64,000 nt of DNA from Escherichia phage vB_EcoM_SP1, in sequence record MT682709.1; one strand, 5' to 3'. Every line of letters starts with the position of its first letter. Position 1 is the stretch's first letter. The notes below the pieces were generated by a model. That model was not told where the DNA came from. It saw only the letters and a program-made list of their open reading frames with translations, and did not search any database. Position numbers and translations under genes: made by a program. Shown here piece by piece: positions 33,623 to 34,450 of the stretch.

Positions 33623-33695
33623 TGGGAATTAGCCAAGTTGGTAAGGCACTGGATTTTGATTCCAGGATGCAAAGGTTCGAGTCCTTTATTCCCAG
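33623..33695 (+). tRNA. tRNA-Gln (anticodon TTG)
   Basis: Cloverleaf read by hand: acceptor TGGGAAT/ATTCCCA, anticodon loop TTTTGAT. Confidence 0.85.
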
Positions 33696-33696
33696 C

Positions 33697-33783
33697 GCGA
33701 GAATGGTCAAATTGGTAAAGGCACAGCACTTAAAATGCTGCGGAATGATTTCCTTGTGGGTTCGAGTCCCACTTCTCGCACCA
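33697..33783 (+). tRNA. tRNA-Leu (anticodon TAA), CCA encoded
   Basis: Acceptor GCGAGAA/TTCTCGC, anticodon loop CTTAAAA, long variable arm. Confidence 0.85.
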
Positions 33784-33788
33784 AATTT

Positions 33789-33862
33789 GCGGATATCGTA
33801 TAATGGCATTACCTCAGACTTCCAATCTGATGATGTGAGTTCGATTCTCATTATCCGCTCCA
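33789..33862 (+). tRNA. tRNA-Gly (anticodon TCC)
   Basis: Acceptor GCGGATA/TATCCGC, anticodon loop CTTCCAA. Confidence 0.85.
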
Positions 33863-33872
33863 ATTTAATTTA

Positions 33873-33946
33873 CTCCGTGTAGCTCAGTTTGGTAGAGCGC
33901 CTGATTTGGGATCAGGAGGTCCAAGGTTCAAATCCTTGTATGGAGA
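33873..33946 (+). tRNA. tRNA-Pro (anticodon TGG)
   Basis: Anticodon loop TTTGGGA, T-arm GGTTCAAATCC. Confidence 0.85.
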
Positions 33947-33948
33947 CT

Positions 33949-34038
33949 GGAGGCGTGGCAGAGTGGTTTAATGCACCGGTCTTGAAAACCGGCAGTCGCT
34001 CCGGCGACTCATAGGTTCAAATCCTATCGCCTCCGCCA
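33949..34038 (+). tRNA. tRNA-Ser (anticodon TGA)
   Basis: Acceptor GGAGGCG/CGCCTCC, anticodon loop CTTGAAA, long variable arm. Confidence 0.85.
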
Positions 34039-34043
34039 GTTTT

Positions 34044-34119
34044 GTTGATTTAGCTCAGTAGGTAGAGCACCTCACTTGTAATGAGGACGTCGGCGGTTCG
34101 ATTCCGTCAATCAGCACCA
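34044..34119 (+). tRNA. tRNA-Thr (anticodon TGT)
   Basis: Acceptor GTTGATT/AATCAGC, anticodon loop CTTGTAA. Confidence 0.85.
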
Positions 34120-34120
34120 A

Positions 34121-34195
34121 GGCCCTGTAGCTGGAAGGTTCAAGCAAGCGACTCATAATCGCCAGATGGTGGTTCAATTCCACCCAGGGCCACCA
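34121..34195 (+). tRNA. tRNA-Ile (anticodon CAT, T4-type) or Met
   Basis: Acceptor GGCCCTG/CAGGGCC, anticodon loop CTCATAA. Confidence 0.75.
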
Positions 34196-34204
34196 AATTA
34201 ATTT

Positions 34205-34291
34205 GGGGAGTTATCCCGTAGAGGTAGCGGTGTGGACTGTAAATCCATTGTCATTGCGACTCGGGTGGTTCGACTCCATCACTCCCCACCA
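34205..34291 (+). tRNA. tRNA-Tyr (anticodon GTA), type II
   Basis: Acceptor GGGGAGT/ACTCCCC, anticodon loop CTGTAAA, long variable arm. Confidence 0.7.
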
Positions 34292-34295
34292 ATTT

Positions 34296-34370
34296 GGATG
34301 TGTAGCTCAATGGCAGAGCGATCGCCTGTTAAGCGATTGGTTATAGGTTCGAATCCTATCACGTCCGCCA
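34296..34370 (+). tRNA. tRNA-Asn (anticodon GTT)
   Basis: Acceptor GGATGTG/CACGTCC, anticodon loop CTGTTAA. Confidence 0.75.
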
Positions 34371-34374
34371 AATC

Positions 34375-34450
34375 CGAGGCATAGCTCAGAAGGAAGAGCA
34401 AGGACCTTCTAAGTCCTAGGTCGTAGGTTCGATCCCTACTGCCTCGACCA
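34375..34450 (+). tRNA. tRNA-Arg (anticodon TCT)
   Basis: Acceptor CGAGGCA/TGCCTCG, anticodon loop CTTCTAA. Confidence 0.75.

Follow-up and report, generated by a model that had tools for sequence, protein, structure and literature searches.

A stretch of 64,000 nucleotides (nt) from the Escherichia phage vB_EcoM_SP1 (sequence record MT682709.1), referred to here as the window, carries a contiguous array of ten transfer RNA (tRNA) genes at 33623-34450. Our analysis indicates that this locus is very probably the tRNA operon of the T-even phages in its T2-type version, free of the homing endonuclease gene segB and in the fullest form that is common among these phages, with ten tRNA genes that are predicted to be functional. 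ARAGORN returned exactly ten tRNA genes for the whole window, all on the + strand, and the Rfam model RF00005, which is independent of ARAGORN, placed every one of them above its gathering score of 29:

33623-33696, + strand: tRNA-Gln(UUG), found by ARAGORN (ttg) and Rfam; CCA not encoded; zero spacer to tRNA-Leu.
33697-33783, + strand: tRNA-Leu(UAA), found by ARAGORN (taa) and Rfam; 100% identical to T4, T2 and T6.
33789-33862, + strand: tRNA-Gly(UCC), found by ARAGORN (tcc) and Rfam; 99% identical to T4, T2 and T6.
33873-33947, + strand: tRNA-Pro(UGG), found by ARAGORN (tgg) and Rfam; CCA not encoded; 100% identical to T4 and T2.
33949-34038, + strand: tRNA-Ser(UGA), found by ARAGORN (tga) and Rfam; CCA encoded; tRNA body 100% identical to T4 and T2.
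34044-34119, + strand: tRNA-Thr(UGU), found by ARAGORN (tgt) and Rfam; also found in T4 and T6; T2 has the trna.1 open reading frame (ORF) instead.
34121-34195, + strand: CAT-anticodon tRNA, most likely tRNA-Ile2, T2-type allele, found by ARAGORN and Rfam.
34205-34291, + strand: tRNA-Tyr(GUA), phage-type allele of a class II tRNA (long variable arm), found by ARAGORN (gta) and Rfam.
34296-34370, + strand: tRNA-Asn(GUU), discriminator G73, found by ARAGORN (gtt) and Rfam (74.1 bits, the highest of the ten).
34375-34450, + strand: tRNA-Arg(UCU), T2-type allele, found by ARAGORN (tct) and Rfam; 75/76 to T2.

A sequence-only reading of this DNA had described the same ten contiguous genes, and its coordinates, anticodons and spacers of 0-10 nt are all reproduced by the two programs, which also accept the cloverleafs of Tyr and Asn. 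From 5' to 3' the intergenic spacers measure 0, 5, 10, 1, 5, 1, 9, 4 and 4 nt. Nine of the ten genes score 59-74 bits against RF00005 (E-values 1e-10 to 1e-14), and Tyr scores 30.2 bits. The terminal CCA is encoded in eight genes, the exceptions being Gln and Pro; because the eight include Ser and Ile(CAT), whose counterparts in the T4 cluster lack an encoded CCA, this phage should rely less than T4 does on the host CCA-adding enzyme. The absence of an endonuclease gene from the array, which the same reading had noted, holds up in scans of ORFs, T4 homology and domains: BLAST of T4 against the window finds no homology to T4 segB within 31000-38000, the only frames in the array are short spurious ones that overlap tRNA genes, and the seven flanking ORFs scanned contain neither GIY-YIG nor HNH domains.

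By sequence comparison the window belongs to Tequatrovirus, the region being 96-99% identical to many Tequatrovirus genomes, with phages 132 and IME340 the closest. The T4 map (NC_000866) reads Gln-Leu-Gly-Pro-Ser-Thr-Ile-[segB]-Arg-rnaD-rnaC and thus agrees with the earlier account that T4 has eight tRNAs, none of them Tyr or Asn. That account had further placed both segB and the two stable RNAs between Ile and Arg; segB does lie there, but rnaD and rnaC lie downstream of Arg. The array of the window occupies the slot of the T4 cluster, from the trna.2/ipI side to rnaD, rnaC and e.8, and both flanks are 94-98% identical to T4. Homology to T4 runs from trna.4/trna.2 through Thr, ends inside the CAT tRNA at ~34133-34140, and restarts at 34817 at rnaD. 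Two features of the intervening DNA are central to what follows:

34133-34816, + strand: T2-type variable segment, comprising most of Ile, all of Tyr, Asn and Arg, and the T2L-type trna.2 ORF; delimited by the break in T4 homology and matching T2.
34346-34372, + strand: predicted preferred 27-bp SegB recognition site, GGTTCGAATCCTATCACGTCCGCCAAA, inside tRNA-Asn; single occurrence in the window.

In place of the 34133-34816 segment, T4 has the 3' part of Ile, segB and Arg. Alignment of the individual genes shows the same partition. Leu, Gly, Pro, Ser and Thr are 97-100% identical to T4, and those present in T2, from which Thr is missing, are 99-100% identical to it. The CAT tRNA is only 65% identical to T4 Ile, with which it shares nothing beyond the first 12 nt, and matches T2 at 75/75 positions. 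Tyr matches T2 at 86/87 and Asn at 75/75 (Asn is also 100% identical to phage G4507), neither gene being found in T4, and Arg, nearly identical to T2, is ~70% identical to T4 and T6. T4 and the window thus carry different alleles over the whole stretch that begins within Ile and extends up to rnaD, and these alignments show a swap of alternative cassettes and not a simple insertion. Sequences flanking segB in T4 and T6 contain no remnants of Asn, and the replacement is clean after a shared ACCA/ATTT. The claim that Tyr and Asn occupy the place of segB and the stable RNAs is therefore sound for the missing endonuclease and fails for the stable RNAs: the entire Ile-to-rnaD allele has been exchanged, and Tyr and Asn are not in the position of the stable RNAs, since homologues of rnaD and rnaC are present at 34814-35073.

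The alternative cassette corresponds to one already described. Brok-Volchanskaya et al. (2008, PMC2330249) sequenced the tRNA regions of T2L, RB1 and RB3, found all of them without segB, and reported in T2L four tRNA genes that are additional or encode isoacceptors (Met, Tyr, Asn and Arg), two ORFs, and a preferred 27-bp SegB site within tRNA-Asn. In their T4 x T2L crosses, 99.6% of the progeny carried segB, and a T2L segment of ~1250 bp (Met-Tyr-Asn-Arg-trna.2) was excluded; by correspondence, the variable segment at 34133-34816 is the region lost through SegB homing in those crosses. The window contains, with 0-3 mismatches, the sequences of their T2L primers for trna.2 and for every tRNA gene, and primers #22 and #23, for trna.1, are absent from it. 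The trna.1 ORF that would lie between Ser and Met is not in the window, where Thr stands and is followed after 1 nt by the CAT tRNA. This departure from the published T2L, with Thr kept and trna.1 missing, tells against a full equation of the two; the window is thus a Thr-retaining variant, as is phage 132, and not an exact copy of the T2L layout. We deduced the sequence of the SegB site from the description in the same paper (it starts GGTTCRANTCC and has G6, A16, G18, A26 and A27 as against the Ser site), and because the Asn gene of the window is identical to that of T2, the site is expected here as in T2L. Positions 34346-34372 are accordingly given as a predicted, sequence-based SegB site.

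These correspondences suggest how the two forms of the locus may be related. The left half of the operon (Gln to Thr) is held in common with T4, and the right half (Ile, Tyr, Asn, Arg and trna.2) constitutes an alternative cassette. Because tRNA-Asn holds the preferred SegB site, a mixed infection with a segB+ phage would be expected to end with the cassette cut at the Asn site and then replaced, and replacement through SegB cutting would explain why T4 lacks Tyr and Asn. A second homing endonuclease insertion is seen in a relative, Shigella phage ESh31 (ON528741 87305-88221), in which an endonuclease gene is inserted within the Leu-Gly-Pro-Ser part; because this is a second insertion place, such elements appear to have landed in the cluster repeatedly.

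The segB-free form is also the prevalent one. In the phage collection that we searched, the Leu-to-Ser core occurs in 624 records, a contiguous Tyr-Asn pair with at least 80% query coverage in 435 phage records, T2 among them, and T4-type segB at no less than 80% of its length in 126 records. Since 435 records carry the Tyr-Asn pair against 126 with segB, the form found in the window is common and that of T4 is in the minority in sequenced T4-like phages. The novelty that the sequence-only reading had implied for Tyr and Asn consequently falls away: the ten-gene layout is already known and common, having been published for T2L in 2008 (PMC2330249) and annotated in hundreds of Tequatrovirus genomes, phage 132 included, and the Tequatrovirus PYps phages are listed in a table of a 2022 paper as having 10 tRNA genes, among them Arg, Asn, Tyr, Met, Thr and Ser. 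The locus thus has little discovery value, and its kind of Tyr gene already has a published role against the Septu defence system. It serves instead as a reminder that the reference phage T4 carries a minority, endonuclease-invaded version of the locus, so that a gene seemingly "extra" relative to T4 can represent the common state.

We next considered what these tRNAs might do for the phage. Codon counts from 70 window ORFs, compared with a 49-kb sample of Escherichia coli K-12, show that the A-ending codons cognate to the eight T4-type tRNAs occur at 1.1-5x the host frequency in this AT-rich phage, and these eight would thus serve codons that are much commoner in the phage than in its host. 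Tyr and Asn would serve amino acids that the phage uses more than the host does: Tyr codons occur at 43.9 vs 27.5 per thousand and Asn codons at 60.6 vs 40.6 per thousand (phage vs host), the codons for both are 1.5-2.1x more frequent in phage ORFs than in E. coli samples, and the T-ending fraction of Tyr and Asn codons is 0.75 in the phage vs 0.16-0.55 in the host. A codon-supply role for Tyr and Asn is accordingly plausible.

Whether supply would be the sole reason for keeping these two genes, with no anti-nuclease role, is a separate matter. The enrichment of their codons, together with the classical codon-supplement pattern of the other eight tRNAs, speaks for a pure service to an AT-rich proteome; we nevertheless consider that account rather unlikely, if still a serious contender. 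GUA and GUU are already the only anticodons that the host uses for those boxes, so that Tyr and Asn, unlike the other eight tRNAs, fill no decoding gap. The phage-type Tyr, moreover, is common to unrelated phage families and phage-like plasmids at 94-99% identity, which indicates selection on the Tyr molecule itself. Finally, the tRNA-Tyr of T6 counters Septu, to which the Tyr-less T4 is sensitive (PMC13096335), and host tRNA-Asn is a target of the PARIS defence system, the bypass of which is aided by a tRNA-Asn of T5. The two kinds of role are compatible and not mutually exclusive.

The case for an anti-nuclease role is best developed for Tyr. Septu cleaves tRNA-Tyr in the variable arm, and the T6 tRNA-Tyr, which is visible on northern blots, rescues infection from Septu when it is overexpressed or amplified; T4 is sensitive to this system and T2 is resistant (Chihara et al. 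2026, PMC13096335). The Tyr of the window is orthologous to this rescue-proven T6 tRNA (85/87, with an identical variable arm), and by analogy it may likewise replenish tRNA-Tyr destroyed by host PtuAB-type nucleases (Septu and retron-Eco7). Several observations weigh against reading too much into the parallel. The resistance of T2 may or may not stem from its tRNA-Tyr, and the T6 tRNA-Tyr is itself cut by Septu EcB88 (PMC13096335), so that protection would depend on dosage; amplification of Tyr in T6 requires segB (PMC13096335), and a single-copy Tyr without segB-driven amplification may give only partial protection. On the side of codon supply, the host sample is small (49 kb), and one of the operons in it is cryptic and atypical.

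A parallel case can be outlined for Asn and Thr. The AriB nuclease of PARIS cuts between positions 40 and 41 of host tRNA-Lys, of tRNA-Thr(UGU) and, as a secondary target, of tRNA-Asn(GUU), and T5 variants of the Lys, Thr and Asn tRNAs bypass it. Over positions 36-41, Asn reads UAAGCG in the window vs UAAUCC in the host, and Thr reads UAAUGA vs UAAUCA; as comparisons of sequence, these differences at 39-41, beside the AriB cut, are no more than suggestive of PARIS evasion. Taken to its conclusion, this line of thought would have the right half of the operon (Ile, Tyr, Asn and Arg, with His in some relatives) serve anti-defence and not codon supply: Tyr would replenish the tRNA destroyed by PtuAB, and AriB-resistant substitutes would be provided by the T2-type Asn and by Thr, which is shared. 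We offer this only as a tentative and on balance doubtful proposal. If it were true, segB homing would strip recipient phages of defence-evasion genes and segB would be a selfish element with an immune cost.

An alignment of eight tRNA-Tyr sequences (the window, T2, T6, G4507, a Vequintavirus, a T5-like phage, a phage-like plasmid and E. coli tyrT) yields a class-II cloverleaf; in 8 of its 24 pairs both partners have changed and pairing is kept. The T-even phages, the Vequintavirus, the T5-like phage and the phage-like plasmid have one and the same variable arm and T arm, and the T5-like tRNA-Tyr is ~85% identical overall to that of the window. This alignment bears on the suspicion that Tyr, Asn or both are decaying pseudo-tRNAs, debris of recombination between tRNA genes, which would find some support in the score of Tyr, barely above the RF00005 gathering score, in its non-canonical D-arm, and in the marking of the T5-like homologue as a pseudogene in one annotation. 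We judge decay to be very improbable. Because the cloverleaf is compensated, with such changes spread over four phage lineages, the weak score of Tyr stems from its unusual D-arm and its long variable arm and does not signal decay; Tyr and Asn are conserved at 98-100% in T2, T6 and G4507; direct reading finds identity features in both (A73 and the long variable arm in Tyr, G73 and GUU in Asn); and the T6 tRNA-Tyr is detectably expressed and active (PMC13096335), Asn for its part having the top Rfam score of the array.

Searches of 5,426 E. coli genomes with Tyr found no chromosomal match and gave plasmid matches only, and Asn has no E. coli match that covers at least 80% of its length, its partial matches, of no more than 79%, falling on other tRNAs. 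The notion that Tyr and Asn were recently captured from the E. coli chromosome, or are an insertion peculiar to this phage, draws on the shared anticodons alone and is rejected as having next to no probability, given these missing chromosomal and full-length matches and the occurrence of the pair in 435 phage records that include T2. Outside the T-even phages, the phage-type Tyr is found at 94-99% identity in Vequintaviruses and on ~270 phage-like plasmids of ~110 kb. The ~270 E. coli plasmids match the Tyr of the window at 94%, and those listed are mostly ~110 kb. In one of them, pEC881_2 (NZ_CP019027), Tyr stands in an Asn-Tyr-Thr-Ser array at 3921-4747 of the stretch examined, with a DNA ligase and an integrase gene close by, as in a phage. 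The Asn-Tyr-Thr(-Ser) array of these plasmids possibly bears on the proposed anti-defence role, since the tRNAs that PARIS AriB and Septu/retron-Eco7 PtuAB are documented to attack are precisely Asn, Tyr and Thr. In the Vequintavirus JeffSchatz (1427-2239 of the stretch examined), Ile(CAT) matches the window at 74/75 and Tyr differs at ~4/87 positions (94.8% identity), and Arg, Thr and Pro are unrelated alleles; because only Ile and Tyr are closely shared, these two genes appear to move singly between phage families.

The identity of the CAT-anticodon tRNA required separate attention. ARAGORN calls it Met, and the corresponding gene carries the label 'Met' in earlier papers (PMC2330249; PMC13096335). 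Among E. coli sequences, the nearest is a lambdoid prophage gene annotated as tRNA-Ile (81.6% identity), with which it shares an identical anticodon arm, AGCGA-CTCATAA-TCGCC. The acceptor stem, GGCCCTG/CAGGGCC, contains by direct reading the pairs C4-G69 and C5-G68, which reportedly are determinants for TilS, and the phage shows a 3.3-fold enrichment of ATA codons over the host and none of ATG. On the strength of the prophage relative, the shared anticodon arm, the acceptor pairs and the ATA enrichment, the gene most likely encodes a tRNA-Ile2, which would be lysidine-modified and read AUA, rather than a tRNA-Met. The reading of this tRNA as Ile in the sequence-only account is thus the better of the two, as judged by the prophage tRNA-Ile with the identical anticodon arm.

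In the left half of the array, Gln stands apart. It is 89% identical to the allele of T4, T2 and T6 and 100% identical to that of G4507 and RB51, the lower figure arising because the entire anticodon arm differs, with full compensation, and the remainder of the gene is identical. At 33648-33664 the window has CTGGA-TTTTGAT-TCCAG vs TAGCA-CTTTGAC-TGCTA in T4; the loop of E. coli tRNA-Gln presumably has U32 and U38, as in the window, in contrast to C32 and C38 in T4. The possibility that this allele is unusual was rejected, as it is the commoner one by record count: it is found at 99% identity or better in 290 records, and in ~235 records the match is no better than 80-90%, which is where the T4/T2/T6 allele falls.

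The tRNA genes are flanked by further elements of the T-even locus:

33527-33553, + strand: candidate T4-type middle promoter, with a MotA-box-like motif, TATGCTTTA, a gap of 12 nt and a TATTAT -10 element.
34467-34817, + strand: ORF of 116 amino acids (aa), equivalent of T2L 'trna.2'; matched by T2L primers #24 and #25; 334/351 nt identical to T2.
34814-34928, + strand: homologue of rnaD (T4 stable RNA species 2); 95/119 to T4 and 110/113 to T2.
34935-35073, + strand: homologue of rnaC (T4 stable RNA species 1); 137/139 to T4.
35124-35157, + strand: terminator-like hairpin (35124-35147; 10 bp, 7 G-C pairs) followed by a T-run, found by an intrinsic-terminator search.

The location of the two stable RNA genes also settles whether Tyr and Asn are rnaC and rnaD misread as tRNAs. 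This idea, which gains some color from the tRNA-like 3' part of rnaC (annotated as a 94-nt 'tRNA-Lys' in G4507), is scarcely credible and is rejected on the T4 map, on similarity and on the position of the real homologues: neither rnaC nor rnaD is among the three best T4 matches of Tyr or Asn, those matches reach only 62-68%, the level of unrelated tRNAs, and the true homologues have places of their own in the window (34814-34928 and 34935-35073), the T4 RNAs themselves lying downstream of Arg. The comparison with the T4 stable RNAs that the sequence-only reading had proposed thus shows Tyr and Asn to be different sequences. In G4507 the feature annotated 'tRNA-Lys(ttt)' (4525-4618 of the stretch examined) comprises the 3' 94 nt of rnaC and shows how tRNA-like that RNA is; we therefore rejected it as a further tRNA gene, and neither ARAGORN nor Rfam calls rnaC a tRNA in the window. 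The rnaD homologue keeps the 5' ~40 nt and 3' ~25 nt of T4 rnaD and has a ~50-nt center that has diverged from T4, and its 5' end is overlapped by the stop codon of the trna.2 ORF.

The product of the trna.2 ORF, an ORF absent from T4, belongs to phrog_3355, a family without known function; it has no Pfam, NCBIfam or PDB relative, and a single-sequence AlphaFold model reaches a pLDDT of only 62. A second ORF absent from T4 lies on the other side of the stable RNAs, at 35242-35805; its 187-aa product belongs to phrog_2280, likewise of no known function and with no Pfam, NCBIfam or PDB relative. On the left flank, the T4 trna.3 ORF is missing at 33235-33240, T4 73328-72918 having no counterpart between the homologues of trna.4 and trna.2; phage 132 and G4507, unlike the window, retain it.

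Following the tRNAs, the right-hand part of the operon comprises the small trna.2 ORF, stable RNAs D and C and the terminator, and the hairpin at 35124-35157 is the likely end of this transcription unit. The ten tRNA genes are most likely co-transcribed, as in T4, from the middle-promoter-like motif to the terminator past rnaC; host tRNA-processing enzymes would then excise the tRNAs, and Gln and Pro would receive their CCA ends from the CCA-adding enzyme of the host. The MotA-like motif, located by a manual pattern search ~70 nt upstream of tRNA-Gln and conserved in the same sequence upstream of T4 tRNA-Gln, is a candidate middle promoter. Here caution is called for by a generic sigma-70 scan that performed at chance (9 sites vs 9.0 expected), so that the call rests on the MotA-box consensus.

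Set beside the known T-even loci, the window is closest to T2-type phages. T2L and T2 (AJ880101; AP018813) are likewise segB-free and agree with the window in their alleles of Met/Ile(CAT), Tyr, Asn and Arg (99-100% identity), in the succession of Arg, trna.2 ORF, rnaD and rnaC, and in the preferred SegB site in tRNA-Asn; T2 differs in the anticodon arm of Gln and in having the trna.1 ORF where the window has Thr, and so carries 9 tRNAs against 10. Phage 132 (MZ417521) is annotated with the same 10 tRNAs in identical order and spacing, and G4507 has a tRNA-His(GUG) added between Asn and Arg, for a total of 11. The T4 cluster shares the genomic position, the flanking genes and the promoter-proximal region; it differs in possessing segB, in lacking Tyr, Asn and the trna.2 ORF of T2L, and in carrying unrelated alleles (65-70%) of Ile and Arg. 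T6 (AP018814) has the same phage-type tRNA-Tyr as the window (85/87) with segB directly 3' of it in the place of Asn, T4-type Ile and Arg, and neither Pro nor Ser, which leaves 7 tRNAs. The anti-defence tRNAs of the T5 family (Tyr against retron-Eco7 and Septu; Lys, Thr and Asn against PARIS AriB) offer a possible functional parallel from another phage family: their overall tRNA sequences differ from those of the window, which has no tRNA-Lys, whereas the tRNA-Tyr described here and the T5-like one do not differ in the variable arm or the T arm.

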